Source: a virus
Lineage: Duplodnaviria; Heunggongvirae; Uroviricota; Caudoviricetes
Direction: 5' to 3' (one strand)
DNA length: 16,063 nt
Virus record (IMG/VR): IMGVR_UViG_2609459830_000022
Positions 1,462 through 14,845 of this stretch are shown here, piece after piece (the first letter of the stretch is position 1; every line of letters begins with the position of its first letter). The notes below the pieces were generated by a model. That model made no database searches and had not been told where the DNA came from. It saw nothing but the letters and a program-made list of their open reading frames with translations. Both the position numbers and the translations under genes were made by a program.

Positions 1462-1583
1462 ATATGTCCTTTTATCACCACAGCAAGGCAACCCATTGAT
1501 TTAATTAAACAATCCACACTGCAAAAAGTGCTAAAAACAGCAGATTGACTACACTATTAACTACACCGTTCGGTGCACTGTAT

Positions 1584-1611
1584 GAAACAACGTGGAACAA
1601 ATAGACACAAG
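1584..1611. repeat. Phased TTGTT/AACAA repeat cluster, site A (3 units at 10-bp spacing, AACAA on plus strand)
   Basis: gaaacaacgtggaacaaatagacacaag. The reverse complement reads TTGTGTCTAT TTGTTCCACG TTGTTTC and is near-identical to site D (14521..14543). Confidence 0.6.
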
Positions 1612-1951
1612 AAATATACAGGCGGGTAATCTTTCCAGGGGGAAGCGCACCAATTCATGAGGGGCGTTAATGTCGATATGGGGATCCCCATAACGGGGCT
1701 ACCGGATTTTTTTTCCGGTTAACTGTTAATCAGGCTGGTGGGTTTTACCTGTTCGGTAGGTGTTATGATTATCGTAATACCTTTCCCCCAGTGGGGTAAA
1801 AGCTCCAACCGTAACGATGTTCGTTGTGGTTGCCTTGATGGTCTGCGTGGTCATTATGACCATTCAGAATATGAAGGGTGACGCTTCCGACTTCCTCAAA
1901 TTGAGGTTTCCGAAAATATCAGCGGGTTAGCGATTAATCTGACCATTAATT

Positions 1952-1974
1952 AAACTACGAAAATTTCGTAGTTT
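1952..1974. repeat. Perfect 11-bp inverted repeat separated by 1 nt (aaactacgaaa a tttcgtagttt)
   Basis: Read directly from the sequence. It lies about 90 nt downstream of the last minus-strand late gene (stop at 2063) and has no flanking T-tract, so it is not a canonical intrinsic terminator. Confidence 0.5.
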
Positions 1975-2062
1975 GTGAATATATTCCGGCCTTCTGGTTA
2001 ACAGTCCTCAGATGTGAGGGATGTAGCCAGCGCAATTTTGCGTTATCGGGAATATCAGCAAG

Positions 2063-2344
2063 TTACCGCCGTAACCGCTCCGGCTTCTTCCAGTGGTACG
2101 TGATTTTCTCCTTCTCCCGATACAGTTCAACGCGGCGATTGTAGGCCAGCATTTCCAGAACGCGGATCCGTATGTCGCGCATATCCGCATCATTAAGCTG
2201 GATACCATCACGGCGCATCACCTCAGCAACAACACGCGCATAATTTTCGGCTGTCACGCTGTCCGGCTGCGTGGTCTGTTCGTCAGCCTGCTGGCTGATT
2301 CCAGAGACGCGGCGGATTAATCGCAGTATTTCGGCTTCTGTCAT
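2063..2344 (-). CDS. Hypothetical protein (93 aa), last gene of the packaging operon
   Basis: ATG at 2344 preceded by GAGGT Shine-Dalgarno at 7 nt spacing, 14 nt downstream of the TerL stop. No recognisable motif. Confidence 0.5.
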   Translation of the reverse strand: MTEAEILRLIRRVSGISQQADEQTTQPDSVTAENYARVVAEVMRRDGIQLNDADMRDIRIRVLEMLAYNRRVELYREKEKITYHWKKPERLRR

Positions 2345-2357
2345 GCTGCTGACCTCA

Positions 2358-4019
2358 TTACACCCCGCTAAATTCTTCCAGTTTCTGGCGGTGGCTGTCG
2401 CTTATATCAAAAGCAAAATCCTCATGCTCTGCCTGGAATGTACCAAACGCCATCAGCGCCGCTACGCTCGGGTCTATCTTGTTCGGTGATTTTTTCTTGT
2501 TCGGCTTGATATTGGCGTTCGCGTCACTCTGCATCACGACGTTACTCATCGACCAGGACAACACCGGATCGCCACGATGCACAATCACCCTGCGGTTAAC
2601 AAAAACTTCGAACGATTTCGCCGCCGGACTGAATCTGAGGTAGGTTTGCGGGAACGGCTCCACCTCAAAACCTGCCCCCTGTAATTGCGTTCTGAGATGC
2701 GTGGCGTTCCACGTATCAAAGCCCACCAGCCTGATATTAAATTTCTCCGCGTCCTGCATGATGTCATCTCTGATCCGGTCGTAATCAATGCAGTCGCCAG
2801 GCGTTGTGCGTATCCAGCCTGCTTTAGCCCACTGACGATAGATGGCGCGGTTTTTATTGGCGGGGTTCTGTAGCTGAAATTCCGGCAGATAGTGACGGGA
2901 AACCAGCATAATGGTTTTACCGACCGGAAAGGCATAGCACACGCTGGAAATATCGCTGGTTGATGATAAGTCCAGCCCCGCGTAACACTCCTGGCCGTGT
3001 AAATCTTCCTCCGTGAACGTTCCGGCACACTCAGCCCATGCGCCGTTACCCATCCACGGGGTAGTCCCCTGACACCAGATATTAAATCGCTTTGTCATCA
3101 TCTCCACCCACTGCGACGGAATACCCCGCGCTTTCTGGATGGTTGAGGCCAGTTTTTCACGATCCACGGAAACATCGATGTTAGGGTTAGCCTTTATCCA
3201 CATCGCCGGATCATCAACCTCGTTTTCGTCGTCCAGCTCGTAAATCAGTACAAAAATTGAATCGTTGACCTCTTCGCCGTCCAGGATCTGGCAGCAATAA
3301 TCATAGTGCTGCTTACAGGCTGAAACGACGTTACTGCCCGATGTAGTAATGGCAAATAACAGCCCTTCGGGACGTGCGCCCATCCCCAGCTCAAGCGCGG
3401 AATAAACGCCGTTATCGGGGTGTAGGTGGTATTCGTCCACGATGGAAAGGCTGGGGTTTGTTCCCTCGATGGTTGCCGCTTTTGCTGCCAGCGGCTTTAA
3501 CAGGCTGTTGCTTTTCGGGTGCATCACCTTGTGGGCCTGAATATTCACCCGCCTGCGTAACGGTCGGGATAAAAGGCACATCTGACGCGCATCATCAAAA
3601 ACGATCCGCGCCTGGTCACGGCTCACCGCTGCGGTGTAAATATCCTGCTGCCCGTTCTCCATAATCAGAAACCAGTTAGCCAGAATCGCGGCGGTCGTGG
3701 ATTTCGCATTTTTGCGCGGCACTTCGATAAAGGCGCTCGTATATTTGCGCCGTCCGGTGGCCTTAACCTTAAAGCCGAGGATGCACGCAAAGGCGAACTG
3801 CTGCCACGGCTCCAGCTCAATGGGGCTACCGCGCATTGCGCCTTTTACGTGCGGGCACACCCTGGAAAAGGCAATAAACCGCTCCACAACCTCACGATCG
3901 AACGTGTAAAGGGGGCTTTCAAGGTCCGAAAAGTACCGTTTAACGGCCTGTTTCAGCCGTTTACAGGCCGGAATTTTGCCCGTTTTTACGTCTTCTGCGT
4001 ACTTATTCCAGGCGGTCAA
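2358..4019 (-). CDS. Terminase large subunit (HK97/Terminase_1 type), 553 aa
   Basis: Length and overall pattern typical of phage TerL with an N-terminal ATPase region and C-terminal nuclease region. The start is TTG at 4019 preceded by a GAGGA Shine-Dalgarno, overlapping the TerS 3-prime end by 17 nt. Confidence 0.88.
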   Translation of the reverse strand: MTAWNKYAEDVKTGKIPACKRLKQAVKRYFSDLESPLYTFDREVVERFIAFSRVCPHVKGAMRGSPIELEPWQQFAFACILGFKVKATGRRKYTSAFIEVPRKNAKSTTAAILANWFLIMENGQQDIYTAAVSRDQARIVFDDARQMCLLSRPLRRRVNIQAHKVMHPKSNSLLKPLAAKAATIEGTNPSLSIVDEYHLHPDNGVYSALELGMGARPEGLLFAITTSGSNVVSACKQHYDYCCQILDGEEVNDSIFVLIYELDDENEVDDPAMWIKANPNIDVSVDREKLASTIQKARGIPSQWVEMMTKRFNIWCQGTTPWMGNGAWAECAGTFTEEDLHGQECYAGLDLSSTSDISSVCYAFPVGKTIMLVSRHYLPEFQLQNPANKNRAIYRQWAKAGWIRTTPGDCIDYDRIRDDIMQDAEKFNIRLVGFDTWNATHLRTQLQGAGFEVEPFPQTYLRFSPAAKSFEVFVNRRVIVHRGDPVLSWSMSNVVMQSDANANIKPNKKKSPNKIDPSVAALMAFGTFQAEHEDFAFDISDSHRQKLEEFSGV

Positions 4020-4359
4020 GCTCGTCCTCTTCTTCTGTTTCCGGTGGATTTTTACGGCGGCTTATCGGGTCAAAACCGAGCAAAGAGGCCATTTTTATCA
4101 TCACTCTTTCAGCGTCGGATTTTGCGCTTAATGCGGGGTTTCTGCTCTCGCCGCCCTGACTGTTAACAATGCTGAACCCGCGCGCCGCAAGGTCTGCAAC
4201 GGCTTTCCGGTAAATGGAGTAATTGACGCAATACAGTTCCAGATTACTCCAGTCGGCGGGAGTCAGGTCACCCCGTTCCGCAAGCTGCCGCGATTTTTCC
4301 CGCCACTGCTTCACGGCGATATCATCCAGGTAGGCGGGGGCTTTCGGTGGTCTTGCCAT
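4003..4359 (-). CDS. Terminase small subunit, P27 family (118 aa)
   Basis: Sequence pattern (DLTPADWSNLELYCVNYSIYRKA ... LLGFDPISRRK) matches the P27-family phage TerS. ATG at 4359, TAA at 4003-4005, positioned directly upstream of TerL. Confidence 0.82.
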   Translation of the reverse strand: MARPPKAPAYLDDIAVKQWREKSRQLAERGDLTPADWSNLELYCVNYSIYRKAVADLAARGFSIVNSQGGESRNPALSAKSDAERVMIKMASLLGFDPISRRKNPPETEEEDELDRLE

Positions 4360-4399
4360 GCTTATTTTTTCGCCAGATTATTTTTCAAAAAATTCCCGT

Positions 4400-4480
4400 G
4401 CATAAAAATTTGAGGAGGCGTTCGGTTCCCGGCGGGGTCGGGTTTGTCCTGAAAACGCCCCCCACCCCGTCATACAGCCT
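4400..4480. other. Candidate cos / packaging-initiation region between HNH and TerS
   Basis: A 289-bp non-coding gap sits between the HNH stop (4649) and the TerS start (4359). It contains a G/C-rich segment (ccggcggggtcgggtttgtcct ... cgccccccaccccg) flanked by A/T-rich sequence. The HNH-cos-TerS-TerL arrangement is the standard layout in HK97-like cos phages. Confidence 0.4.
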
Positions 4481-4648
4481 CATCAGCGATTGCGGAAACA
4501 TTCCATAACCTCGCGGTCACGGTCGTTTAATCGCGTCGCTGTGATGCGTTCTGCGCGTCCTGATGCTTTATCTTTATGCCCTGTTTCCTGTGCCTTCCAT
4601 GCGTCACGCTGCCTTATCAGTCCACGGATAAGGCGGTTTTGTTCCCGC

Positions 4649-5089
4649 TCATTCATCAGCGTCATACATCCAGTTATTGCGGTTAGCGGCCCGTTCTTCC
4701 TCTTCACGAAATCCACCTGCGGCACGCTTGCTTTTTGTTGCCGGATCAAGCCATTTCGTTTTCTGGTTATGACACGCCTGGCACAATGGCTGATGGTTCC
4801 ATTCGGGCCAGAAGAGAACATCATCACCGCCATTAATCGGGATAATGTGATCCACCACCACGGCGGGCGTATATATCCCCTTCTCAAGGCATCGCACGCA
4901 TAACGGGTTTTTACTCAGATACATGGCGCGGTATTTGTCCCACTGTCTGGAGTACCCACGCGCGCGGCGGTGTCCTCGTCTGGCATCCTCTGCACGCCAT
5001 GCCGCCCGCCTGTGCTCCTCACACTTGCCGGACTTCACGCGCCTGTTACAGCCTGGTTCTGTGCATCGTCTTAATGGTTGCCACGGCAT
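4649..5089 (-). CDS. HNH endonuclease (146 aa), packaging-associated
   Basis: Cys pairs (CTEPGC, CVRC, CQAC) plus the D-H ... N ... H motif (VVVDHIIPINGG ... WNHQPLCQACHNQK). ATGA overlap with the upstream connector gene. Confidence 0.85.
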   Translation of the reverse strand: MPWQPLRRCTEPGCNRRVKSGKCEEHRRAAWRAEDARRGHRRARGYSRQWDKYRAMYLSKNPLCVRCLEKGIYTPAVVVDHIIPINGGDDVLFWPEWNHQPLCQACHNQKTKWLDPATKSKRAAGGFREEEERAANRNNWMYDADE

Positions 5090-5385
5090 CAGTACACCCC
5101 CACATCACGGTAAGCCGTCCAGAGTGCGCCTATCGTCATGGGTACGTGTGTTTTTGCGTTATCCGCGACAATCTGGCGATTCTCATACAGGTGAGCGATA
5201 AACATCATGCAGCCAATCTTTATGGCTGGCGTGAACCCCAGCCCGTCATCAAAGCGCCTGCCTATGTGTATCTGGCACGCCTCAAGCGATGCGGCAATGT
5301 ATCCGCTGATTAACTGGTCTTCCTCGTCGCCATCGATGCGGCAATGGAGTTTCACTTCTTCCAGGGTGATAAGTTCTTCTGTCAT
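5089..5385 (-). CDS. Head-tail connector protein (gp6-like), 98 aa
   Basis: N-terminal LITLEEVKLHCRIDGDEEDQLISGYIAAS pattern typical of the Phage_connect_1 family. ATGA overlap with the upstream adaptor gene. Confidence 0.72.
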   Translation of the reverse strand: MTEELITLEEVKLHCRIDGDEEDQLISGYIAASLEACQIHIGRRFDDGLGFTPAIKIGCMMFIAHLYENRQIVADNAKTHVPMTIGALWTAYRDVGVY

Positions 5386-5720
5386 TTTTCCGCGCCCTCA
5401 CGACAAAGAATTTCAAGGCGTGTCCTGGCGGCATCCGGCAGCGGCTGCCCGATGATATTCAGTACACGCCCCGCCAGCGGCCCCGTATTGACCTTTATCC
5501 GGCTGGTGGCGTTGATGTCCTTCCGGTACCGTATCCAGATCCTTACCGTACCAATCGCCAGCTCTGCACCCGATGAAATGGCCTCCTTGCTGCTGACCAT
5601 GTTCACGCTTGCCCAGAGTGTGTGACCGTCCTCCCACGTTTCGAGTATTTCGCCCGTCATGGCTCTGGTCTGTTTCAGGGTCTGAATCGTTACCCTGTCA
5701 CGCAGTCGCCCTATGTTCAT
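5382..5720 (-). CDS. Head-tail adaptor / head closure protein (112 aa from ATG 5720; alternative ATG at 5762)
   Basis: RVTIQ ... ETWEDGHTLWASV ... pattern of phage head-tail joining proteins. The ATG at 5720 overlaps the portal stop (ATGA coupling). Confidence 0.68.
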   Translation of the reverse strand: MNIGRLRDRVTIQTLKQTRAMTGEILETWEDGHTLWASVNMVSSKEAISSGAELAIGTVRIWIRYRKDINATSRIKVNTGPLAGRVLNIIGQPLPDAARTRLEILCREGAEK

Positions 5721-6928
5721 TCCGGTTTTTCTCCCTCGCTGATTTTTACTTCCTGTTTCCATGCCTGGCTGAACTCATCACCACCATCACGCGGAGACAA
5801 CCCTTCTCGTTCGCGGGCTTCGTTCGGGCACATAACACCGGATTTGATGCCTCGCTCATAGGTGGCAAAGCGTTCGCCAGGAGTGGCCCGTAACAGGTCC
5901 GCGCTGTCAAACTCCACCTGATACCGGATACCAGGTACAGGTGAGGCCACCAGCAGGGCGTTTTTTATCTGCTGCTCAAAGTTCGCCAGCCACGGGCGCA
6001 TCGTCATGGTGAGAAATGCGCGGCTTGCCTCGCTGAAATTGCTGTAGGTGCTGTTGCTGTATTCCTGCAAAAAAATCGGCGAGACGTTGAACATTCGGGC
6101 GATGTCTTCAATGGTGAAGCGACGGGAGGCCAGCCATTCAGCATCCTGATTACTCATGCCCAGCTGCTGATAGCTCATACCCCCTTCAAGGATGGGCGTT
6201 TTTCCGGCGTTTCTGGCCCCTTTATAGCGTTCCAGTGCGGCTAATGCCTGTTTGCCTTTCACGCCGTCCAGCCATTCGCCTGACGTGATAACCCCTGCCG
6301 CCATCATGCCATCACGCATCACGCTCGCGCCGTGGCGTTGTTGGGCCAGCCCAAGCCCCAGCGATTCGCGGCAGATGGTTACAGGTGAGCGCCCCATAAA
6401 GCCGTCATCCGTGGAGTAACGAAGGTGAAGTACTTCCCACGGTAAATAGTTGCGGGTGTTTCCGGTGTAGGCGTCAGTGATGCAATAGCGCCAGTTATGC
6501 TCACCTGTCTGCTCCACGTTCACCGACTGCGGCGGGTAAGGATGCAAAGCGATCGGAAAACCATCACGCCCCCACTGAATCACCGCATAAGCATTACCGT
6601 TTAACAGGCAGTGGCGGATCATCATTCGCTTAAACTGGTAGGGGGTCTGCCATGCGTTCGGGCGCTCGTTGAGGATGTGATCGACCGGATGAGAATCAAG
6701 CCACTCGCGGGCCTCCTTCCCCTTCTCATTGCGTACCAGGTACAGGTAACACGGCATGGTAGCCACCGCCTCAGAGATGACCGTGACGGCGTTCATGACG
6801 GCGGGCAGTGATTCCGCTGTCCCCGATGATACGTACTCACCCGCCCCCGTGTTCGATGTGCCAGCCAGCGCCATAAACTCATCAAGCGTCATGCTGCGCT
6901 GCTCTTTTTTTCTTCTGAAAGGCCACAT
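5717..6928 (-). CDS. Portal protein, HK97 family (403 aa)
   Basis: Size and sequence pattern of HK97-type portal. ATG at 6928 preceded by a GGGGGTG Shine-Dalgarno, 1 nt after the protease stop. Confidence 0.9.
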   Translation of the reverse strand: MWPFRRKKEQRSMTLDEFMALAGTSNTGAGEYVSSGTAESLPAVMNAVTVISEAVATMPCYLYLVRNEKGKEAREWLDSHPVDHILNERPNAWQTPYQFKRMMIRHCLLNGNAYAVIQWGRDGFPIALHPYPPQSVNVEQTGEHNWRYCITDAYTGNTRNYLPWEVLHLRYSTDDGFMGRSPVTICRESLGLGLAQQRHGASVMRDGMMAAGVITSGEWLDGVKGKQALAALERYKGARNAGKTPILEGGMSYQQLGMSNQDAEWLASRRFTIEDIARMFNVSPIFLQEYSNSTYSNFSEASRAFLTMTMRPWLANFEQQIKNALLVASPVPGIRYQVEFDSADLLRATPGERFATYERGIKSGVMCPNEAREREGLSPRDGGDEFSQAWKQEVKISEGEKPE

Positions 6929-6929
6929 A

Positions 6930-7502
6930 TCACACCCCCGCTAAATCCACCCACCAGCGGCGATTATCCGCACGCGGCATTTTTTCGGGGTGCTGCTCAT
7001 ACAGGGAACGGCGGGCCAGCTCCACGCCGGAATCGGGGTAAGCCGGTACCGATGTAACGGTAATTTCGTACAGTTCCGCCACCAGCACGGTGCGCACGCA
7101 TGGATCTGTTGTGGTATCCCATACATCCTTACGGGAGCGAAAGCCAAAGCTCATCCCCGAGATGTCCCCACGCTTAACCAGTTCGATAACGTCGCGCCCT
7201 GTACTGGTATCCGGTGGGGTCAGTTCAAAGCGTAACCCTGTTTCGTCCTCTTCCAGTTTCAGCGTGCCGGAACGGGTGCGCCCCAGTAACATGCTGTGGT
7301 CATGCTCATACAGGCCGCGAACGTCATTACCCGCCGCAAGCCACTCAGTAAACGCCCCCCGCTGGAATTTTTCGTAAAACTCCCCCCATAGCAGTTCTGA
7401 AAGCTTATCCCAGCGAACAACGTAGCCCGTCAGCGTACCGGCTCCGCTGGTAGTGATTTCCGATGACCGGATTTCCATACTCTTCATAATTTTTTCACCC
7501 AT
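6930..7502 (-). CDS. Prohead protease, HK97 family (S78); true start may be ATG 7487
   Basis: HDHSMLLGRT and GDISGMSFGF motifs characteristic of HK97 prohead protease. The first ATG (7502) lacks a Shine-Dalgarno; the second ATG (7487) has GGTGA upstream. Confidence 0.88.
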   Translation of the reverse strand: MGEKIMKSMEIRSSEITTSGAGTLTGYVVRWDKLSELLWGEFYEKFQRGAFTEWLAAGNDVRGLYEHDHSMLLGRTRSGTLKLEEDETGLRFELTPPDTSTGRDVIELVKRGDISGMSFGFRSRKDVWDTTTDPCVRTVLVAELYEITVTSVPAYPDSGVELARRSLYEQHPEKMPRADNRRWWVDLAGV

Positions 7503-7532
7503 AAAACACTAAAGGGGCTTTTAAGCCCCTTC
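7503..7532 (-). terminator. Intrinsic terminator-like hairpin between the major capsid and protease genes
   Basis: Minus-strand RNA reads AAGGGGCUU-AA-AAGCCCCUU (9-bp arms) followed by UAGUGUUUU, immediately after the capsid stop (7542-7544). Confidence 0.5.
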
Positions 7533-7541
7533 TGTATGCTG

Positions 7542-8699: not shown

Positions 8700-8736
8700 A
8701 AAAAAAGTCCTGGGATTAAGTAAGGAACTCCAGGAC
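8700..8736 (-). promoter_or_regulatory. Stem-loop plus U7 immediately 5-prime of the capsid start codon; the stem contains the only AGGA Shine-Dalgarno-like motif
   Basis: Minus-strand RNA: GUCCUGG (16-nt loop) CCAGGAC UUUUUUU AUG. Stem arms at 8707-8713 and 8730-8736, T7 at 8700-8706. Confidence 0.5.
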
Positions 8737-8913
8737 GCGGCAAACACTCAACCGTTTTTCATAAGGAAATCAGCAATCGCACCGATCGTTTTCCCGCCTG
8801 GTAATGAATATTGGCGAGAACATTAACAGGCGGAAAAGTGGCCCCAGCGTCCTGGCACCACGGGCGAGAATAATCATGATTCAGTTCGGGTAAAATATGC
8901 CGATCCGCTCAGT

Positions 8914-8940
8914 GAACAACGTGGAACAACCACGAACAAA
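8914..8940. repeat. Phased TTGTT/AACAA repeat cluster, site B (3 units, AACAA on plus strand)
   Basis: gaacaacgtg gaacaaccac gaacaaa. The reverse complement TTGTTCGTGG TTGTTCCACG TTGTTC matches site C (14754..14803) at 24 of 25 positions. It lies about 215 bp upstream of the capsid start. Confidence 0.65.
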
Positions 8941-8950
8941 TAATTTACAA

Positions 8951-8980
8951 AACATGACAAAAAGCCGGATTGCTCCGGCT
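8951..8980 (-). terminator. Rho-independent terminator after the PerC-like gene
   Basis: Minus-strand RNA: AGCCGGA-GCAA-UCCGGCU followed by UUUUUGUCAUGUUUUG, beginning 7 nt after the TAA at 8987-8989. Confidence 0.7.
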
Positions 8981-8986
8981 GTGTGA

Positions 8987-9259
8987 TTATCTGTCCTGGT
9001 AATTTCGCCATATTTCATCACCAGCACCATCCATACCCATTTCGGCATAAGTGCGATCGACCGCCTTTTTCAGGTCTCCGTAATTATCCGGCGGCTCCGG
9101 TGGCCTCTGTGCCTTCCTGGAACATTCCAGCCGTCGCATCGTGATATGATGCCGTTCCTTGTCTGTCTCCACCAGTAGCATGACTTCACCCCATCGCGCC
9201 GCCGCCCTCCGGTAAAAGCCTTTCGCCTCGAGTTCTTCCGCTATGCGGTCATGTACCAT
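8987..9259 (-). CDS. Small regulator, PerC-family-like (90 aa)
   Basis: ATG at 9259 preceded by GAGGGGGGGA Shine-Dalgarno. The motif EAKGFYRRAAARWGEVM resembles the PerC/Pch family of small transcriptional activators; the assignment is from memory of the family motif, not a search. Confidence 0.45.
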   Translation of the reverse strand: MVHDRIAEELEAKGFYRRAAARWGEVMLLVETDKERHHITMRRLECSRKAQRPPEPPDNYGDLKKAVDRTYAEMGMDGAGDEIWRNYQDR

Positions 9260-9269
9260 CGTCCCCCCC

Positions 9270-9680
9270 TCAGAACGGAATATCATCACCGTAAGGGTCA
9301 TCGCCTCCCACTGGTGGCTGATTACCCTGTGTGCCAGTGGTCTTGCGTCGGCTCCCACCAGGACGTGCCGCCCGGGCACTGATTACGCTGTCTGCAATAA
9401 CCTGATAACCCTGCCGCGTTTCCCCGTTCTGTCCGGTCCACTGGCTGACCTGCATGTTACCCGCCACGGTCAGGAGTTCACCCTTGCGGTGCCTTGCCAG
9501 TGCTTCGGCCTGTCTGCCAAATGCCAGGTCGGATAACCACATCGTCGCCGTTCCGTCATCTGCCTGGCTGCACGGAAGGGGGACCGCCATACTCGCCATC
9601 GTCATTTGTGTACCCTTGCTGGTGGTCTTTAACTGCGGGTCAGCCACCAGCCGCCCGTAAGCTGCAATTTGTGCTGTCAT
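9270..9680 (-). CDS. ssb: Single-stranded DNA-binding protein (SSB-like), 136 aa
   Basis: OB-fold-like N-terminal region, Gly/Pro-rich linker and the acidic C-terminal tip DDIPF diagnostic of SSB. GAGGTGG Shine-Dalgarno before ATG 9680. Confidence 0.8.
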   Translation of the reverse strand: MTAQIAAYGRLVADPQLKTTSKGTQMTMASMAVPLPCSQADDGTATMWLSDLAFGRQAEALARHRKGELLTVAGNMQVSQWTGQNGETRQGYQVIADSVISARAARPGGSRRKTTGTQGNQPPVGGDDPYGDDIPF

Positions 9681-9689
9681 ATTGCCACC

Positions 9690-9995
9690 TCAGTGAAGCG
9701 ATCCGGCGTTATTCTTTTTCATCTCTTCCATCATTTTTTCAGTGAGCATTACGCACTGAAAACCCATGTTTTTGATGTCTACGGGCTTCATGCCTTTATC
9801 AGTGGATATCACAGGAAGAATATCCTGATACACATCGCGGTCAGGGTAACTAAGCACACAAAGCGCCCATGATGCCACGGGTGAGGATCCTTCGTCTGTT
9901 TCAACCCACCAGCCTGGTGTAGCTGCGCTTATTTGCAGAATCGTGATCAGTCCGTTGTGCTTGTAAAGTTTTTCACCAAATTTTGGTTCGCTCAT
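9690..9995 (-). CDS. Hypothetical protein (101 aa)
   Basis: ATG at 9995 with GAGAGGTGG Shine-Dalgarno and ATGA overlap with the upstream gene. No recognisable motif. Confidence 0.5.
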   Translation of the reverse strand: MSEPKFGEKLYKHNGLITILQISAATPGWWVETDEGSSPVASWALCVLSYPDRDVYQDILPVISTDKGMKPVDIKNMGFQCVMLTEKMMEEMKKNNAGSLH

Positions 9996-10243
9996 GATTC
10001 CACCTCTCCGGTTTTAACGTTGATGGTTGTTACCTGTTCCGCTTCGGCAATCTCCCGTTCTGTCAGCGTGGCAAAGTTTGCCGCCGCCGTGGTCATGAAT
10101 GCGCTTATCAGGTCGGGATGTTCCTTCGCGTATCCTTCCCGCGTGTGGCGGTCTATCGTTCTGATTGCCACCTTTAAGGTGTGCTCAGTCATGTCTAACG
10201 CTTTATATTTTGGCTCTGTTCTGTCTCTGCGTTTTTGGGTCAT
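9992..10243 (-). CDS. Hypothetical protein (83 aa from ATG 10243; ORF track extends to GTG 10273)
   Basis: ORF immediately downstream of the iteron region. Start choice is uncertain: ATG at 10243 and ATG at 10192 are both possible. Confidence 0.4.
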   Translation of the reverse strand: MTQKRRDRTEPKYKALDMTEHTLKVAIRTIDRHTREGYAKEHPDLISAFMTTAAANFATLTEREIAEAEQVTTINVKTGEVES

Positions 10244-10253
10244 TTCTCGCAAC

Positions 10254-10447
10254 CTCTCACTTTTTCGCCTCACTTTTTCAAGCGTCTCACTTCGTCGCAG
10301 CTGGGATTTTCGGTTTTTCTATGTGTGTGTTTCATAAGTATTTTTTTACCCCTCACTTTTGAGGATGTATACAGGTCGAAAAGTGAGGGAGAGCAGGCTA
10401 ATTTTGGCCCTCTTTCTATCCACCTCGCTTTTGCTCCTCACTTTTAT
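10254..10447. repeat. Iteron cluster, putative replication origin (7 copies of CTCACTTTT, one inverted, flanking an A/T-rich core)
   Basis: Copies at about 10256, 10269, 10286 (imperfect), 10352, 10379 (inverted), 10424 (imperfect) and 10437. The A/T-rich stretch is at 10300-10350. The cluster sits immediately 3-prime of the primase-helicase gene (stop 10444-10446). Confidence 0.7.
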
Positions 10448-11844
10448 AGCGGTGCTACATCATCCCCATCGATACGAATAACCCCATCTTTTTCCAGCTT
10501 GTACAGCCAGCGCCGGAAGTTTTTCATTTCATACCCCAGCTTTTTCATGTCATCACGTAACAGCGGGATCGTGCACTTGTCGCCGTTCTGTGTGCGTGAA
10601 CGGATGCACCCCCATAGCGCGGTATGGTTTTCCGTCTTGTTCCCTGCCTCCTCGATGCGCTCCAGTTCAACAGGAGGGCGCGGATCATCCACCACCACCA
10701 GCGACGTGATTAATTCACCGTCAGCGTCGGTAAAAAGCTCCACCACGCGTAAGTCATATGCGGCTTCTTTGAGTTCCTCCGCGTCCTTCATTTTGGTGCA
10801 TGAGATAACCAGCGCTTCGCTTCCTGCGTCCTCCCTGCGTATCCGGTATTCAGCATCCAGCGAAGCACGAAATGCACTGGAACCGCGCGCGCCTTTCGTC
10901 TCATCCTTGCCGGAATGGTGAACCACCAGCACCGTGGCCCCTGTGCGTCGTTTCAGTTCGTCACAACCACGGATAAACGCCCCCATATCACGGGAATCAT
11001 TTTCATCATTCCCACCAAAGCAACGCGCCAGCGTATCCAGAATAATCATGCGTACAGGTTTACCCGTTTCCCGCTCCACCTGACGGGCAGCGATAACCAT
11101 TTCATCAACATCAAGCGGGGCAGCCGGAAAGATGGGGCGGTTTACCAGATACAGATTTTTCACCTGCTCATCGTGCACAACCTCCCAGGCTTTTACACGA
11201 CGCGGAACACCTATACCGCCTTCACCGACCACATAGAGAACCGCACCATGTGCAACCCTGCGGCCTCCCCACTGGCGACCAGTGGCAACATGGCACGCCC
11301 ACGATCCGGCAAGGAATGATTTATAGGACCCGCTAGCCCCGTATATGCTGCATAGCGATACCGCCGGAATAATCCCCTTAACCACGTAATCCAGTTGCGT
11401 GTCGTATCCGGTAGATCCAACGCTCATCGGTAGCGTGGTTTTTCGCTGGTGGTTTTTTTCTTCCGCCGGCTCTTTCCCACGCACCCGTTCCAGGTATTCG
11501 CGCCAGTTCTCCCGCATATGGCTGTGCATCCCTTCGGGGTAATAATTCGCATCAGTTACACCCGCCGCCGCCAGCTTGTGCGCAATGGCATTAATATTTG
11601 ATGGCCTGATGTGGCCTGCCTTGTACAGCCGGACACAATAGCGCCCCTCGTCGATGATTCTCAGGTCTGCCAGTTCATCCAGTTGATCATCAGCCAGCAC
11701 AACGGGAGGCACATTATCGCCAGCCAGTCGCCCGTCCTGTTCCTGCCACTGTTTCGCATGTGCCCAGGCATCACTACCCGCAAAAATAATGACTTCGGTC
11801 ATCTTGTCGTAAGGCTGTTTTTTTAAGTTCGGTGCGCTTTTCAT
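10444..11844 (-). CDS. Replication initiator: Toprim-like N-domain + RecA-like (RepA/AAA_25-type) ATPase + C-terminal winged-helix; PICI pri-rep-like
   Basis: P-loop-like IYGASGSYKSF, RepA-like segment ILDTLARCFGGNDENDSRDMGAFIRGCDELKRRTGATVLVVHHSGKD, N-terminal VIIFAGSDAWAHA Toprim-like segment. Followed by the iterons. Confidence 0.78.
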   Translation of the reverse strand: MKSAPNLKKQPYDKMTEVIIFAGSDAWAHAKQWQEQDGRLAGDNVPPVVLADDQLDELADLRIIDEGRYCVRLYKAGHIRPSNINAIAHKLAAAGVTDANYYPEGMHSHMRENWREYLERVRGKEPAEEKNHQRKTTLPMSVGSTGYDTQLDYVVKGIIPAVSLCSIYGASGSYKSFLAGSWACHVATGRQWGGRRVAHGAVLYVVGEGGIGVPRRVKAWEVVHDEQVKNLYLVNRPIFPAAPLDVDEMVIAARQVERETGKPVRMIILDTLARCFGGNDENDSRDMGAFIRGCDELKRRTGATVLVVHHSGKDETKGARGSSAFRASLDAEYRIRREDAGSEALVISCTKMKDAEELKEAAYDLRVVELFTDADGELITSLVVVDDPRPPVELERIEEAGNKTENHTALWGCIRSRTQNGDKCTIPLLRDDMKKLGYEMKNFRRWLYKLEKDGVIRIDGDDVAPL

Positions 11845-12140
11845 TTCTTGCCCCTGAATCCGTTAACCATGGTTTTCAGCTTCTGGATGTTTGCCCGTGC
11901 CCTGGCGTTGCTGGTGGGCACGTTATGCGGCGCGGTCTGTACCAGAGAAAAATCACGCCGGAACTGATAAACAGGCATCACGCAATCATATTCGTAACCT
12001 TCACGGCGGTAAGTTACGCACCGTCCCGCCACGCCCTTAATCATTACCGTGCCGCCGTACTGGTCGCGGTAAATATCACCGCGCATAAATTTAGGGTGAG
12101 TGTTGCCACTGGCAGTTAAGCCAGAATATTTAAGTTTCAT
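11841..12140 (-). CDS. Hypothetical protein (99 aa), translationally coupled to the primase-helicase
   Basis: ATG at 12140; its stop overlaps the primase start (ATGA). Confidence 0.5.
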   Translation of the reverse strand: MKLKYSGLTASGNTHPKFMRGDIYRDQYGGTVMIKGVAGRCVTYRREGYEYDCVMPVYQFRRDFSLVQTAPHNVPTSNARARANIQKLKTMVNGFRGKK

Positions 12141-12145
12141 TATTT

Positions 12146-12379
12146 TTATTCTCCGGTGTGCTGTTCGTTATATCTGTCGTGCAATGTCTCTATTTCCTGC
12201 AACTCATTTATTACAGGCTCAAGAAGCGTTATTAATGATGTAATAATCCGCGTTTTTTTTGCATTACGTTCATTATCGCCAAAGGATTCAAGGCACATCC
12301 GCAATATTTCGTACATACCTTCAGCGTAAGCAAGGGCACTAAATGCGCGGTCTATTGTTTCAAGATAAATATCACGCAT
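12146..12379 (-). CDS. Small hypothetical protein (77 aa), member of a tandem paralog trio
   Basis: ATG at 12379 with GGGGA Shine-Dalgarno. Shares the MRD start and an EI-R ... I--LI pattern with the next gene. Confidence 0.45.
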   Translation of the reverse strand: MRDIYLETIDRAFSALAYAEGMYEILRMCLESFGDNERNAKKTRIITSLITLLEPVINELQEIETLHDRYNEQHTGE

Positions 12380-12380
12380 A

Positions 12381-12602
12381 TTAATCCCCGTCCGTTGTTT
12401 TTCTTAAAACAGCTTCTGTCACGAAATCAGCATAGTTAGCGGCAATATCAAGAATATTTAGCCCTGTACCTCTGTGCTCATCAGTGCAAAGAAAGAAAAA
12501 AGCCACCCGCATAATTTCAGATATTGACGAAAGCGCATCAGCCGCATCATCAGGAACGCCGGAAAATTCTTGTTTCAGGGAATTAAAACGATCATCACGC
12601 AT
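12381..12602 (-). CDS. Small hypothetical protein (73 aa), paralog of the 77-aa and 80-aa neighbours
   Basis: ATG at 12602 immediately preceded by a G9 homopolymer on the coding strand (C9 at 12605-12613 on plus). Confidence 0.45.
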   Translation of the reverse strand: MRDDRFNSLKQEFSGVPDDAADALSSISEIMRVAFFFLCTDEHRGTGLNILDIAANYADFVTEAVLRKTTDGD

Positions 12603-12817
12603 AACCCCCCCCCATTTTCACAATCAGCAACAAGAATATTTTTAGCGTCATTCAGCGACCGCGTTGCGATGTATCGGATACATTCCAGGGCGAACGTTGT
12701 CCGGTCTTTCTGTTCTTCTCCCTGCGCAAGCTCTGCCGTGCATTCAATATCAATAAGCGCGTGCATCAGCGTAGTGAGCGCGGCGGCGGCTGCGTCCGGT
12801 GTGGTTTTATTGCACAT
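12575..12817 (-). CDS. Small hypothetical protein (80 aa from ATG 12817), third paralog
   Basis: ATG at 12817 preceded by a strong AGGAGG Shine-Dalgarno. Segment TPDAAAAALTTL resembles VPDDAADALSSI of the 73-aa gene. Its C-terminus (GGG) reads through the G9 tract. Confidence 0.4.
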   Translation of the reverse strand: MCNKTTPDAAAAALTTLMHALIDIECTAELAQGEEQKDRTTFALECIRYIATRSLNDAKNILVADCENGGGLCVMIVLIP

Positions 12818-12980
12818 GGCACACCTCCTGACGAATACGGGCGACAAAAATCAGATGTGCGTGCGGCAGCTGTGCACGTGCTTCGCGCTCAGTGGCAGCG
12901 GTAACGGTGAATATTGCAATACTGTCTGTCAGGCACTGCATAAAGCGCCAGACAAAATAAGGGCGTGTGAATACAGCCAT
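12807..12980 (-). CDS. Icd-like small protein (host cell-division-inhibitor-like), copy B, 57 aa
   Basis: ATG at 12980 with TAGGAGCC Shine-Dalgarno. Motif FVWRF ... TAATEREARAQLP ... LIFVARIRQ is shared with copy A. Family assignment is from memory of the conserved motif. Confidence 0.45.
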   Translation of the reverse strand: MAVFTRPYFVWRFMQCLTDSIAIFTVTAATEREARAQLPHAHLIFVARIRQEVCHVQ

Positions 12981-13266
12981 GTGAAAGGCTCCTACAGTAA
13001 TTTTAAGGAGTCTCGCTACTACGCTGTCAAACATGGTGGCGAGACGTAACAGGGTTGACAGACTGGCACTGTAGAGACCAGCGAGCGCAAAGGCTCCCCC
13101 GTTACGCCCCGCCATAATGCGGGTATGGGTAGGTTTACGGACACAAAAAAACCGCATATCGGAATGTAAGCGGCTGTCCGCTACAGTATTCAGGCTGTCA
13201 AACCCGGTCGCCATGTGGGCGACGGGGGAAGCATACAGCCCCGTGATAATTTTTTGCAAGCGGTTT

Positions 13267-13464
13267 TTACGCATGATGTGACCCCTGACGAATACGGGCG
13301 GCAAATACAGCAACACAACCTGACGGGCAACGGCTACGCGCTTCGCGTTCCGTCCAGGCGGTTACGTGGATGATTTGAGATTCTCCGGCACTCAGTGCCA
13401 GAAAACGCCACACAAAGGCCGTTTGTGTGTGTACAAGGTGTGGTATATGATTTACGGCAACCAT
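13267..13464 (-). CDS. Icd-like small protein, copy A, 65 aa
   Basis: ATG at 13464 with TAGGAGCC Shine-Dalgarno. Motif FVWRF ... TAWTEREARSRCP ... AVFAARIRQ. Confidence 0.5.
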   Translation of the reverse strand: MVAVNHIPHLVHTQTAFVWRFLALSAGESQIIHVTAWTEREARSRCPSGCVAVFAARIRQGSHHA

Positions 13465-13537
13465 AACGGCTCCTAGTTTACGTTGTTGGTTAGAAGCCCT
13501 GCGAGTGGTAATGACACTTGCGGGGCTTTGCTTTTTT
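13458..13537 (+). ncRNA. Candidate small cis-antisense RNA overlapping the start and Shine-Dalgarno of Icd-like copy A
   Basis: Plus-strand promoter-like TTGTGT (13423-13428), 17-nt spacer, TATGAT (13446-13451). Plus-strand-specific terminator at 13496-13537. No plus-strand ORF lies in between. Confidence 0.3.
13496..13537 (+). terminator. Rho-independent terminator, plus-strand specific
   Basis: 12-bp stem gccctgcgagtg / cacttgcggggc (two G-U wobbles on the plus RNA, which are C-A and U-C mismatches on the minus RNA), 7-nt loop, then TTTGCTTTTTT. Confidence 0.6.
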
Positions 13538-13553
13538 AAGTGCTCTTGTGTTA

Positions 13554-13600
13554 AGGTGACCACCTAACAATGGAAAGGCTAATTCAATAGGTGACCACTT
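13554..13600. promoter_or_regulatory. Two operator-like palindromes AGGTGACCACCT (13554-13565) and AGGTGACCACTT (13589-13600) in the divergent control region
   Basis: Inverted-repeat arms AGGTG/CACCT with centres 35 bp apart. The second overlaps the Shine-Dalgarno and TTG start of the RHH gene. A TTGACA hexamer on the minus strand (13605-13600) lies between them. Confidence 0.5.
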
Positions 13601-13790
13601 GTCAACAATCAAACGCGATAAAAGCCCTAAAGGGGACGGGCAATCCCCACAATTCAGAATGCGAATTTCTCCAGAGCTAAAAGAGCAATTCGACAAAGAA
13701 GCACAGAGCGACGGCATAAGCCTAGCCAACTGGCTTAAAGAGTTGGGGCGCACTGAACTAAAGCGGCGCGGCATAGAACCCAAAGGATAA
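13599..13790 (+). CDS. Arc/Mnt-like ribbon-helix-helix DNA-binding protein (63 aa, TTG start)
   Basis: SPQFRMRISPELKEQFDKEAQSDGISLANWLKELG matches the beta-strand / helix A / helix B pattern of P22 Arc (PQFNLRWPREVLDLVRKVAEENGRSVNSEIYQRV). Start must be upstream of the PQF strand; TTG at 13599 has AGGTGA 4 nt upstream. Confidence 0.55.
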   Translation: MSTIKRDKSPKGDGQSPQFRMRISPELKEQFDKEAQSDGISLANWLKELGRTELKRRGIEPKG

Positions 13791-13847
13791 AAACTATCAG
13801 CGCCGTGGTGTGAGGTATTACGGCGCATTGCTATGCAGGACAACACA

Positions 13848-14021
13848 ATGACCGATAAAGAATTGACCAAAACATTATCACCGGCACGGAAAAGACGGCG
13901 CAGAAAGATAGAGCATGAATCAGAAAGATTCGCGCCATGTGCTTTTGCCCTTGAGCAATTCCTTAAAGAGTATAGGGAAAAGCGCTCATTGCAGGTATGG
14001 CAACGAACTGAACCAGACTGA
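13848..14021 (+). CDS. Small basic hypothetical protein (57 aa from ATG 13848; ORF track starts at ATG 13833)
   Basis: ORF downstream of the RHH gene in the same plus-strand unit. AGGA 8 nt before ATG 13848. Arg/Lys-rich N-terminal half. No recognised family. Confidence 0.3.
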   Translation: MTDKELTKTLSPARKRRRRKIEHESERFAPCAFALEQFLKEYREKRSLQVWQRTEPD

Positions 14022-14115
14022 TTGCATTGCCCACCAGCCTGATAGCGGCTATCATCCCCGTGCTTATGTTTGGGATCACATACACATAAGGCGCAGCGGG
14101 TTATCTGTTCAGAAA

Positions 14116-14144
14116 GGCGGCTCCATTTCGGGGCCGCTTTTTTT
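14116..14144 (+). terminator. Rho-independent terminator closing the plus-strand RHH unit
   Basis: ggcggctcc-atttc-ggggccgc followed by T7. The stem has one G-U wobble on the plus RNA that is a mismatch on the minus RNA. Confidence 0.7.
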
Positions 14145-14290
14145 ATGCCTGAAAAACCCCAATTTTGTGGTTTTCCAGTCTCACCAGGGCGAACGAATCC
14201 CCGCCCACGTTCTGGCGTATATTCAATCTTCATGGTTATAGCTCTGTGTTCAGATGATTGATGTGTGGCGGCTGCGTGCCGCCAGCGTGA

Positions 14291-14479
14291 TTAATGAACT
14301 GCCTTGCAGCTATCCTTCCAGGCCAGAACCTCGGATAAAGACCAGCCAACGGAACGACCGCCAAGTTTACGACGTGATGGGAATTGTCCGGCCTTTTCCA
14401 GGCGGTAGCGACACGTACGGCTAAGGCCGGTTAGTTTTTCGCATTCTTTTTCACGTATAAACCGATCAGTGCTTAACAC
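14291..14479 (-). CDS. alpA: AlpA-family phage/island regulatory protein (62 aa, GTG start)
   Basis: LTGLSRTCRYRLEKAGQFPSRRKLGGRSVGWSLSEVLAWK matches the AlpA helix-turn-helix family pattern. A G7 tract serves as the Shine-Dalgarno. Located directly after the integrase gene, as in P4-like and PICI elements. Confidence 0.8.
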   Translation of the reverse strand: MLSTDRFIREKECEKLTGLSRTCRYRLEKAGQFPSRRKLGGRSVGWSLSEVLAWKDSCKAVH

Positions 14480-14520
14480 TATTGCCCCCCCTTTCGTTTC
14501 TTAAAGAGTCATCAGGTGTC

Positions 14521-14543
14521 TTATTGTGTCGTATTGTTCCCGC
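14521..14543. repeat. Phased TTGTT repeat cluster, site D (2 units, TTGT on plus strand)
   Basis: ttATTGTGTCgtATTGTTCCcgc, near-identical to the reverse complement of site A. It lies 45-65 bp upstream of the alpA start. Confidence 0.55.
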
Positions 14544-14753
14544 TAGAGTGATGAATGGCAAATATTGAGGATGTATGATTTACAGAAAATGAAACAGTAA
14601 GAATAAAATCTTTTAAATTCATGTTAATACAAAGGCATAAAATATTGTTTCATGCCTTTTTTCTCGCTCTTTAAAGAGTGATTCGCTAGTGTATAAAAAA
14701 CCAGTGACACATTAAAAATCAGCCACTTATAAATCTGTATGCTTTTTCGCCTC

Positions 14754-14803
14754 TTGTTCGTGGTTGTTCCACATTGTTGCTCATTGTTGCACGTTGTATC
14801 TGT
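14754..14803. repeat. Phased TTGTT repeat cluster, site C (5 tandem 10-bp units)
   Basis: TTGTTCGTGG TTGTTCCACA TTGTTGCTCA TTGTTGCACG TTGTATCTGT with exact 10-bp register, in the int-alpA intergenic region. Confidence 0.65.
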
Positions 14804-14812
14804 TCGCATATA

Positions 14813-14828
14813 CAGTATGCGCATACTG
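14813..14828. repeat. Perfect 16-bp palindrome cagtatgcgcatactg
   Basis: Read directly; located 18 nt downstream of the integrase stop and adjacent to repeat site C. Confidence 0.6.
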
Positions 14829-14845
14829 AAAAAACACGAAAAAAA

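Follow-up and report, generated by a model that had tools for sequence, protein, structure and literature searches.

Helically phased TTGT arrays in a capsid-forming PICI and its relatives are probable binding sites of AlpA

The DNA analyzed here (the window, a stretch of 16,063 nucleotides) is a capsid-forming PICI (cf-PICI), a phage satellite integrated at the 3′ terminus of phoQ, and it carries phased arrays of TTGT units that are real, far beyond chance, and island-specific. The position, phase, and orientation of these arrays are conserved among islands. The TTGT(T/G)(T/C)(C/G) arrays are probably binding sites of AlpA, which would be both a recombination directionality factor (RDF) and a transcription regulator. 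If this is true, one 62-residue protein both excises the island and turns on its genes. The arrays and the features around them are the following:

Approximately 1455..1470: att crossover/identity region, GGACATATTT..., overlapping the phoQ stop codon
1544..1567, minus strand: tandem 12-bp pair, GGTGTAGTTAAT / AGTGTAGTCAAT, located 13 nt downstream of array A; putative arm-type sites of the integrase
1581..1610, minus strand: array A, three units, TTGTGTCTAT TTGTTCCACG TTGTTTCATA, in the int-distal att arm, ∼110 to 140 bp from the crossover region
8892..8897, minus strand: possible −10 hexamer TATTTT, 16 nt downstream of the last B unit, TTGTTC (8914-8919)
8910..8939, minus strand: array B, three units, TTGTTCGTGG TTGTTCCACG TTGTTCACTG, co-oriented with the downstream capsid/packaging operon
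8940..8960, minus strand: conserved block TTGTCATGTT TTGTAAATTA T, immediately upstream of B, with two further degenerate units and TTTTGTAAATTAT invariant
8963..8980, minus strand: terminator-like hairpin after perC, directly upstream of B
14291..14479, minus strand: alpA, 62-aa winged-helix protein (Pfam PF05930, E = 5e-17), the proposed array binder
14514..14543, plus strand: array D, AGGTGTCTTA TTGTGTCGTA TTGTTCCCGC, two exact units and one degenerate unit (GGTGTC)
14754..14803, plus strand: array C, five units, TTGTTCGTGG TTGTTCCACA TTGTTGCTCA TTGTTGCACG TTGTATCTGT
14846..16063, minus strand: int, P4-type tyrosine integrase with an Arm-DNA-bind_3 N-terminal domain
Relatives only (L001 18222-18261; L002 31591-30; L003 222-261; L263 17844-83): array E, four units, upstream of int

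A preliminary description of this DNA had reported helically phased repeats of 2 to 5 units at four places. The places, the exact 10-bp spacing, and the unit range all stand (D has two exact units plus the degenerate one), but the count of four loci does not: array E, which falls just past the right end of the window, is a fifth site, and each element carries five or more. The window contains 5 overlapping matches to TTGT-N6-TTGT-N6-TTGT (1587-1610 and 8916-8939 on the minus strand and three registers of 14754-14797 on the plus strand), compared with 0.01 expected from shuffles, none of 200 of which reached 5; TTGTT-N5-TTGTT occurs 6 times versus 0.08 expected. An unbiased scan of the 16-kb window for any 4-mer repeated at least three times at a 10-bp period returned A, B, and C and nothing else. 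In 142 kb of chromosomal flank there was no array of at least three units, versus 5 to 7 arrays per ∼15-kb island. The reported likenesses were reproduced as well: B (8915-8939, minus strand) and C (14754-14778, plus strand) are identical, in inverted orientation, at 24 of 25 bp, and TTGTGTC-N3-TTGTTCC is exact in both A (1594-1610, minus strand) and D (14524-14540, plus strand), which are also oppositely oriented. As a family pattern, however, the two inverted near-identical pairs are not conserved: array C of L002 reads TTGTTCCATT TTGTTCCTTG TTGTTCGTCG..., so that the B/C near-identity is not kept in relatives, and the pairs are therefore incidental rather than an organizing principle.

The regulatory or junction locations assigned earlier are correct. 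Array C lies directly 3′ of the int stop codon, inverted relative to the gene direction, and array D, also inverted, precedes the alpA start by 35 to 65 bp, where a promoter-like TTGCCA-17-AACAAT overlaps it; both are upstream of alpA, B precedes the packaging operon, and A is located in an att arm. Two features had been overlooked: that A is an att-arm site, matched by E on the opposite arm beyond the window, and that a tandem 12-bp pair (GGTGTAGTYA twice) lies beside both. The crossover region was read by eye from the far junction of the window against the int-proximal junction of L002, and its boundaries are approximate. A second 12-bp pair, seen in L001, L002, and L003, lies upstream of the int start, outside the window, and both att arms have the order array, 12-bp tandem pair, co-oriented. 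The GGTGTAGTYA pairs are found at ∼90 and 140 bp, a geometry like that of the doubled motif of HE-PICIs, tgTGTATTGCa twice (PMC10111431), which likewise consists of two co-oriented copies of a tandem 12-bp pair, ∼81 and 132 bp from the attP center. The HE-PICI motif is the counterpart of the GGTGTAGTYA pair, whereas TTGT arrays are absent from that account; its authors reported that other PICIs lack the doubled motif, but a related pair is present here in PICIs of the phoQ, tqsA, abgR, cspD, and fis sites.

The motif search across related islands proposed in the preliminary description found the arrays in ∼120 homologous islands, rather than absent from them. All 17 testable loci with AlpA allele 1 have array E; array A with its adjoining 12-bp pair was found in 19 allele-1 and 7 allele-2 loci among those that reach the far end; array B is retained in 23/26 allele-1 and 8/10 allele-2 cf-PICI loci; and array C, with at least three units, is found in 58 of the 59 allele-1 loci. 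The exact two-unit form of D is present in 33/59 allele-1 loci, with variants of three to four units elsewhere. Where the B, C, and D regions were aligned, the TTGT/ACAA columns are invariant and the bases between units vary. In the arm units, AlpA allele 1 goes with C at position 7 and allele 2 with G. The commonest unit in allele-1 islands is TTGTKYC, not GTTCG. Allele-2 islands have no TTGT array at position C, where AATATC is found three times instead; autoregulation via C is therefore not universal. The arrays accompany the element at any of the integration sites named above and are unchanged over at least three different rep types, and the ORFs between alpA and rep differ among array-bearing islands. 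Among the islands examined, int and alpA are tightly linked and no element combines this AlpA with an unrelated Int, so this co-variation test is only a partial one.

Across 30 unique sequences, array B lies within the best-conserved stretch of the packaging-operon upstream region. The block at 8940..8960 is retained even in the homologous promoter region of the Erwinia psidii cf-PICI element L011, in which the three B units differ: they occupy the same place and phase but read (G/T)TACCC, and the small winged-helix gene of that element belongs to another family, HTH_17. In L011, TACCC units were found only at B, with none near its int or regulator gene. The TATTTT hexamer is conserved in the main cf-PICI class, and TTGTTC (8914-8919) would occupy the −35 position of a B promoter. 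A consensus scan for sigma-70 promoters gave no hit at B, so the promoter placed there is putative.

AlpA has an excisionase-type winged-helix fold, as judged from its AF2 model (pLDDT 86.5), which best matches the GIsul2 excisionase 8c3t (TM 0.83 to 0.90), followed by RdfS, Pukovnik Xis, and TorI. Its residues Y25 and R42 align with Y28 and R45 of TorI, both of which are required for DNA binding. AlpA of the window is 100% identical to that of L001, annotated as WP_000953272.1; the EcCIEDL933-type island L263 is annotated with the same protein and carries all arrays. In EcCIEDL933, induction and transfer are abolished by mutation of alpA, and reproduction for capsid purification was driven by alpA overexpression; alpA itself is induced by a helper-phage factor. 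In PICMIs, AlpA expression left satellite transcription unaltered. The searchable literature yielded no array-binding experiments. RDF sites have been described as typically direct repeats one helical turn apart (PMC7498355).

AlpA is the most likely array binder. It would bind head to tail, one monomer per helical turn, as do Xis, TorI, Cox, and Apl. At A and E, in both att arms and beside the Int arm-type pairs, AlpA would serve as the RDF that lets Int excise the island, and the separate P4-like GGTGTAGTYA motif is available for Int. At C and D, in the alpA control region, it would exert feedback on its own gene; at B, abutting the −35 of a weak promoter, it may switch on the late capsid/packaging operon. 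The sign of regulation at each array, like the promoter assignments, is predicted. Array D overlaps the −10 of the promoter-like site, which suggests repression, versus the reported autoactivation by AlpA. An RDF usually binds a single att arm; in these islands, arrays are found on both.

Similar layouts are known from other elements. In attL of the E. coli K-12 prophage KplE1 (CPS-53), TorI has five sites with GTTCG, GATCG, and GTCCG cores, three of which, spaced at exactly 10 bp, adjoin the −35 of PintS; like the arrays described here, these are short direct repeats in an att arm next to int. TorI, a winged-helix RDF of ∼65 aa, resembles AlpA in also being a transcription regulator (it represses PintS), although the two proteins are only 25% identical and TorI falls under the Pfam AlpA threshold, and its sites have been described in one arm and at no distant operons, as opposed to both arms plus at least three internal regulatory positions here. 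The closest characterized AlpA homolog is P4 Vis (42% identity, PF05930), annotated as an excisionase and transcriptional regulator. P4 is the archetype of this integrase type, and its attP has annotated 12-bp tandem Int arm repeats on either side of the core, the layout also seen in the pairs here, and a 10-bp phased array of four TCCG units, presumably bound by Vis, beside the int-proximal pair; its motifs differ (GGGGGCA pairs, TCCG units), and P4 has no capsid operon. P2 Cox, 186 Apl, and lambda Xis (X1-X1.5-X2) are small RDFs that polymerize on direct repeats one helical turn apart, with Cox and Apl using the same repeats at att and at promoters and with Cox activating the late promoter PLL of the P4 satellite via three 10-bp boxes. 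The sequences of these proteins and their motifs are, however, unrelated to AlpA and the TTGT arrays, Cox is encoded by the helper phage rather than the satellite, and Apl and Cox mainly repress their own promoters. Lambda CII sites, TTGC-N6-TTGC, straddle a weak −35 as tetranucleotide direct repeats with a 10-bp period, as proposed for B; CII belongs to another protein family, however, and its sites have just two repeats each, read TTGC instead of TTGT, and are not known from att arms.

It is doubtful that the TTGT arrays are instead arm-type sites of the integrase N-terminal domain, with the GGTGTAGTYA pairs bound by another protein, e.g., AlpA, and with B, C, and D serving as decoys or in Int-regulated transcription. 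Like arm-type sites, the arrays do occur in the same orientation on both arms around the core, int and arrays always co-occur, and lambda P′1-P′3 are tandem repeats ∼10 bp apart. However, the P4-type core is flanked on each side by arm repeats in the form of 12-bp tandem pairs, which fits GGTGTAGTYA and not the 10-bp arrays. Where Int is only 67% identical, the pair shifts from GTAGTYA to GTGGTCA (the motif becoming TGTGTGGTCAGT twice), while the TTGTTCG arrays are unchanged and AlpA remains 92 to 97% identical; the far arm of L020 keeps the pair but lacks the array. Arrays also occur at promoters 1.3 to 7 kb away from the core, at which no role of Int is known, and their GTTCG core is a proven site of the RDF TorI, whereas IntS arm sites contain TAAA. 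The integrase arm domain, one of the binders suggested earlier and a less likely one for the TTGT units, would be better assigned to the GGTGTAGTYA pair. The authors of the HE-PICI study were undecided between Int and AlpA as the binder of the doubled motif (PMC10111431).

Binding of the arrays by a host response regulator of the ArcA or PhoP type, by a CII-type helper-phage activator (TTGC-N6-TTGC), or by an unannotated island protein appears quite improbable. The helper-phage factor that induces alpA and the several island ORFs with no family assignment leave candidates of this kind, as does the restriction of the L011 TACCC units to B, and the period and sequence of TTGT-N6-TTGT are one base off the lambda CII site. 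Against these candidates, the boxes of ArcA and PhoP repeat every 11 bp and have TGTTA/TGTTTA cores, the arrays follow the element to every integration site, and the alpA-rep ORFs vary among islands that retain the arrays. The att-arm arrays beside Int sites fit an element-encoded RDF, and alpA overexpression was the means of driving EcCIEDL933 reproduction in the capsid preparations.

Hardly any weight is left for DnaA boxes, Rep iterons of an origin, or PerC targets, despite the 7 of 9 positions at which two units (TGTTCCACA/G) had been seen to fit the DnaA box and the location of B beside perC, between the replication and packaging modules. DnaA boxes were rejected on the unit itself, in which TTGT (positions 1 to 4) and C/G (position 7) are conserved and the CACA end varies freely, and on the location of the origin-like iterons elsewhere in the island. 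PerC, also proposed earlier, was rejected on the retention of arrays A, C, and E in the perC-less relatives L004 and L006. Of the binders suggested earlier, AlpA is the best supported. Rep iterons were rejected on the constancy of the arrays over the different rep types and on a separate AAAGTGAGG set that flanks an A-rich stretch directly after rep, which is the published layout of a PICI origin.

The window carries a capsid-forming PICI (cf-PICI) of the EcCIEDL933 kind, inserted at the 3' end of phoQ, with the minus strand serving as the coding strand of every island gene:

16063-14846, minus strand, int, encoding a P4-type integrase with an Arm-DNA-bind_3 domain
14479-14291, minus strand, alpA, encoding a PF05930 protein of 62 aa
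13316-12807, minus strand, Icd-like ORF
12140-11841, minus strand, DUF4222 protein gene
11844-10444, minus strand, RepA-like helicase gene
9680-9270, minus strand, SSB gene
9379-8987, minus strand, PerC gene
8747-2358, minus strand, HK97-type packaging module (capsid, protease, portal, head completion, connector, HNH, TerS, and TerL)
1-1461, plus strand, phoQ

The AlpA protein of the window is 100% identical to that of the related locus L001, and the AlpA of L001 shares its accession number, WP_000953272.1, with the AlpA of the O157:H7 island located between phoQ and roxA, which matches the published 15.4-kb EcCIEDL933. The int-alpA module (window positions 14250-16063) is also 100% identical to positions 1841545-1843358 of NC_017626.1, where it belongs to a different PICI, one with lambda-type capsid genes that resides in tqsA of Escherichia coli 042; the window island sits at phoQ, and its right junction is outside the window. 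The possibility that the window comes from E. coli 042, its junctions being phoQ/tqsA hybrids, was rejected because strain 042 has only the int-alpA module in common with it. No complete E. coli genome contained the whole window, the best matches being at 96-97%. Directly 3' of the RepA-like helicase gene, at positions 10260-10445, an A-rich stretch is surrounded by six copies of AAAGTGAG(G/A), of which one is inverted. This is the published layout of PICI origins, with iterons flanking an A-rich stretch directly after rep, and the region is very probably the replication origin of the island. Near the int-distal end, a conserved block GGGGATCCCCATA(T/A)CG (window, 1660-1700; related loci L006, 7725-7760, and L137, 11262-11290) is found in capsid-forming and ordinary PICIs alike.

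The TTGT-N6 units of this island form arrays A (1581-1610) and B (8910-8939) on the minus strand and C (14754-14803) and D (14514-14543) on the plus strand. The phasing reported in the preliminary description is borne out by counts: there are five occurrences (overlaps included) of three consecutive TTGT units with a 10-bp period, at A, B, and C, compared to 0.01 expected from shuffled sequences, and a scan of the 16 kb for any 4-mer recurring at least three times at 10 bp returned A, B, and C only. The inverted near-identity of B and C (24 of 25 bp in common) and the TTGTGTC-N3-TTGTTCC core common to A and D, both pointed out earlier, were recovered as well; array D consists of two exact units and a degenerate third one. 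With a spacing of exactly 10 bp and 2 to 6 units per array, the repeats are about one helical turn apart, as is characteristic of the arrays recognized by recombination directionality factors (RDFs).

A fifth array, E, located just past the right end of the window, came from relatives whose sequences continue past int (L001, L002, L003, and the EcCIEDL933-type island L263). It has four units, TTGTTCCAGC TTGTTTCACG TTGTAGCCCT TTGTGCAACG, and occupies the interval from the att junction to the int start. A tandem pair of the 12-bp motif GGTGTAGTYANN follows A and E alike at a distance of 3 to 13 nt (window, 1544-1567; L001, 18196-18219; L002, 31566-31589). The att arms are the only places where these pairs occur, at distances of about 90 and 140 bp from the crossover, and the segment of identity between the island and the chromosome, GGACATATTT, overlaps the phoQ stop codon. 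The position of this segment and the presence of the pairs on both arms make A an att-arm site, about 110 to 140 bp from the crossover; its earlier placement at the phoQ-proximal junction was too simple. Arrays A and E therefore have the att-arm position beside putative integrase arm-type sites that is typical of RDF arrays. The doubled GGTGTAGTYANN motif on both arms shows the same layout as the arm repeats of phage P4 and the doubled motif of helper-embedded PICIs. The latter was reported in 2023 in the attP sites of these PICIs, with its binder left open, and was stated to be absent from other PICIs (PMC10111431); the site map described here extends it to other PICI groups. A search of viral contigs with a loose version of the 12-bp-pair pattern mostly matched an unrelated coding repeat.

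A motif search in related islands found the repeats to be conserved. Among 69 viral-contig loci with 87-98% identical AlpA, E was detected in all 17 of the loci that could be tested for it, C in 58 of 59, and B in 23 of 26, and A was seen together with its 12-bp pair in 19. In the alignments, the TTGT/ACAA columns are invariant, while the spacers and flanks vary. Among 30 unique sequences, the best-conserved stretch before the capsid gene comprises B and an invariant TTTTGTAAATTAT just upstream of it, including capsid lineages that are only 61-73% identical and have unrelated flanking sequences. Each island carries five to seven arrays. By comparison, the chromosomal flanks, 142 kb in all, contain one array of two units and none of three or more. 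The arrays accompany the element at its phoQ, tqsA, abgR, cspD, and fis integration sites. Two other searches yielded smaller samples: a scan of genome contigs with the capsid protein gave only 5 usable cf-PICIs, and a protein word-index search for AlpA gave only 19 matches. Of the divergent cf-PICI loci, those from Rosenbergiella (L009) and Citrobacter (L010) yielded no informative arrays, and that from Gilliamella (L012) has repeats resembling the iterons of an origin. In islands with the second AlpA sequence group (allele 2), array C is replaced by three copies of AATATC or ATATCG at a 10-bp period just past the int stop codon, the position of C in the window (L095 to L130, around 1285-1317, e.g., L096, 1292-1317; L006, 15830-15860). 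In EcCIEDL933-type islands, an ORF of 74 aa lies between perC and the capsid gene and is preceded, 15 to 35 bp upstream, by an extra inverted two-unit array, TTGTGTCTGT TTGTTTCAGA (L263, 10531-10550; L002, 24433-24452); the window has neither.

Several units had been noted to resemble DnaA boxes, and AlpA, the PerC-like protein, and the integrase arm-binding domain had been named as candidate binders. According to the unit position frequencies, positions 1 to 4 (TTGT) are invariant and position 7 is conserved, whereas positions 8 to 10 vary; since the DnaA consensus 9-mer TTATNCACA keeps its CACA end and the units do not, DnaA boxes are excluded. So is PerC, because the arrays persist in islands devoid of perC: A and E remain in the arms of both L004 and L006, and L004 has C as well. 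The units do not represent Rep iterons, which read AAAGTGAGG and form a separate set after rep, while the TTGT arrays stay the same across different rep types. The PhoP and ArcA regulators, considered because of the phoQ neighborhood, were rejected, as the arrays move with the island to other sites and have a period of 10 bp, not 11 bp. The Pseudomonas aeruginosa antiterminator AlpA, whose ABE site is GGGACG, shares only its name with the PICI protein: it extends past residue 142, has a 21Q-like fold, and uses a single site.

The integrase is the other candidate to be weighed against AlpA. Arrays B, C, and D, as well as F in relatives, are 1.3 to 7 kb from the core, so that the TTGT units lack the confinement to the att arms expected of Int sites; nor do they behave as P4-style 12-bp tandem pairs that co-vary with Int, having a 10-bp period and persisting when Int diverges. 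It is the GGTGTAGTYA pairs that fit this description: phage P4 serves as the archetype for integrases of this class, and its attP is annotated with arm repeats that flank the core on either side as tandem pairs of 12 bp. P4 also has a 10-bp-phased TCCG x4 array beside its int-proximal pair, the only array of that sort in its genome apart from the Cox boxes at PLL. In islands with a third type of Int (67% identical), the pair changes to TGTGTGGTCAGT x2 while the TTGTTCG arrays stay and AlpA is 92-97% identical to allele 2, and one fis-site island has a pair, with no array, on its far arm. Position 7 of the arm units is C in islands with AlpA allele 1 and G in those with allele 2, a correlation that is confounded because Int also differs between the allele groups. 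No natural swap combining the same AlpA with an unrelated Int was found among 69 plus 50 viral-contig loci; int and alpA are always linked, so the co-variation test, provided by the 67%-identical Int type 3, is only partial. RDFs usually occupy one att arm, not both, and the presence of PICI arrays on both arms departs from this pattern. On balance, the sequence comparisons favor, with less than certainty, AlpA as the reader of the TTGT arrays and Int as the reader of the GGTGTAGTYA pairs.

The assignment of the arrays to AlpA is consistent with what the protein looks like. AlpA (PF05930) is the small winged-helix RDF-type protein encoded by the element. Its predicted structural model (pLDDT, 86.5) best matches the GIsul2 excisionase (TM score, 0.83-0.90), followed by RdfS, Pukovnik Xis, and TorI; the fold search was needed because sequence searches of the PDB did not reach TorI. 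P4 Vis, annotated as an excisionase and transcriptional regulator, is 42% identical to AlpA. The invariant Tyr25 and Arg42 of AlpA align with Tyr28 and Arg45 of TorI, which are needed for DNA binding. The experimentally mapped TorI sites in the KplE1 attL have GTTCG, GATCG, and GTCCG cores, three of them at a 10-bp period abutting the -35 element of PintS; reading of the K-12 sequence confirmed them as CAGTTCGTCA TGGTTCGCTT CAGATCGTTGACA, nearly equal to the allele-2 PICI unit.

Gram-negative PICIs, among them the capsid-forming type that moves from one species to another, have AlpA as their master switch. The alpA gene is required for induction and excision of EcCICFT073 and EcCIEDL933, loss of AlpA abolishes EcCIEDL933 induction and transfer, and in published work this island is made to reproduce for capsid purification by overexpressing alpA. 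In PICMIs, AlpA behaves as an excisionase, and publications are divided between activator and excisionase as its role. With arrays placed at the packaging operon and alpA as well as in the att arms, each of these results would be accounted for. Searches of the available literature found no mapping of AlpA DNA targets and no paper describing AlpA sites or footprints in PICIs; the closest precedent is the doubled 12-bp motif of helper-embedded PICIs (PMC10111431). Phased direct repeats at att sites and promoters are well known for dual RDF/regulators such as Apl, Cox, Vis, TorI, and RdfS; the site map is useful to the PICI field but unsurprising in principle.

The individual sites differ in their promoter context. 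Array B comes after the putative perC terminator, and its last unit, TTGTTC, is 16 nt from a conserved TATTTT recognized by eye; a consensus promoter scan returned nothing at B and only weak matches near D. This arrangement suggests that B may be part of an activator-dependent promoter with the -35 element replaced by the array. The array at the packaging operon combines units of the G, C, and A types and has been retained with different AlpA alleles and in different capsid lineages. In the Erwinia psidii element (L011, 9806-9851), the counterpart of B keeps TTTTGTAAATTAT and has, at the same place and phase, three units, CCGTACCCAT GTTTACCCGC GCTTACCCCT, that read (G/T)TACCC, not TTGTTC, and its small winged-helix gene belongs to the HTH_17 family. 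The combination of TACCC units with an HTH_17 gene fits a swappable specificity module, although no second TACCC array was found in this element. The leader between B and the capsid start contains a conserved CCGCCTG...CAGGCGG hairpin (8794-8833) with a counterpart in divergent cf-PICI classes.

Array D overlaps a conserved promoter-like sequence, TTGCCA-17-(A/C)ACAAT, with C about 210 bp further upstream, and both run opposite to A, B, and E. Array E immediately precedes the int start, in the region expected to contain the int promoter, and, by analogy with KplE1, may allow int expression to be damped by AlpA and Int. In the broadest scheme, a single repeat code at both att arms, the alpA control region, and the late operon would be read by one 62-residue protein, such that one polymerizing factor could trigger excision, autoregulation, and capsid production; the packaging-operon array would be a portable AlpA-responsive cassette, and the inverted arrays C, D, and F might loop with the forward arrays or fire antisense to int. 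This scheme, taken with all its parts, appears rather unlikely. Should its portable-cassette reading be true, whole packaging modules could be swapped between islands.

The conserved map, with two arrays in the att arms next to P4-style Int sites, two more at alpA, and a single one at the putative packaging promoter, offers a testable model of AlpA as both activator and excisionase and points to positions where mutations could separate excision from gene activation. The array signature can also be used to search genomes for islands of this kind and to locate their att arms. Two further elements are seen upstream of alpA: a plus-strand hairpin followed by a T-run (14632-14663), which would be a terminator for transcription towards int, and two CTCTTTAAAGAG-like palindromes (14667-14678 and 14499-14510) that are conserved among relatives.
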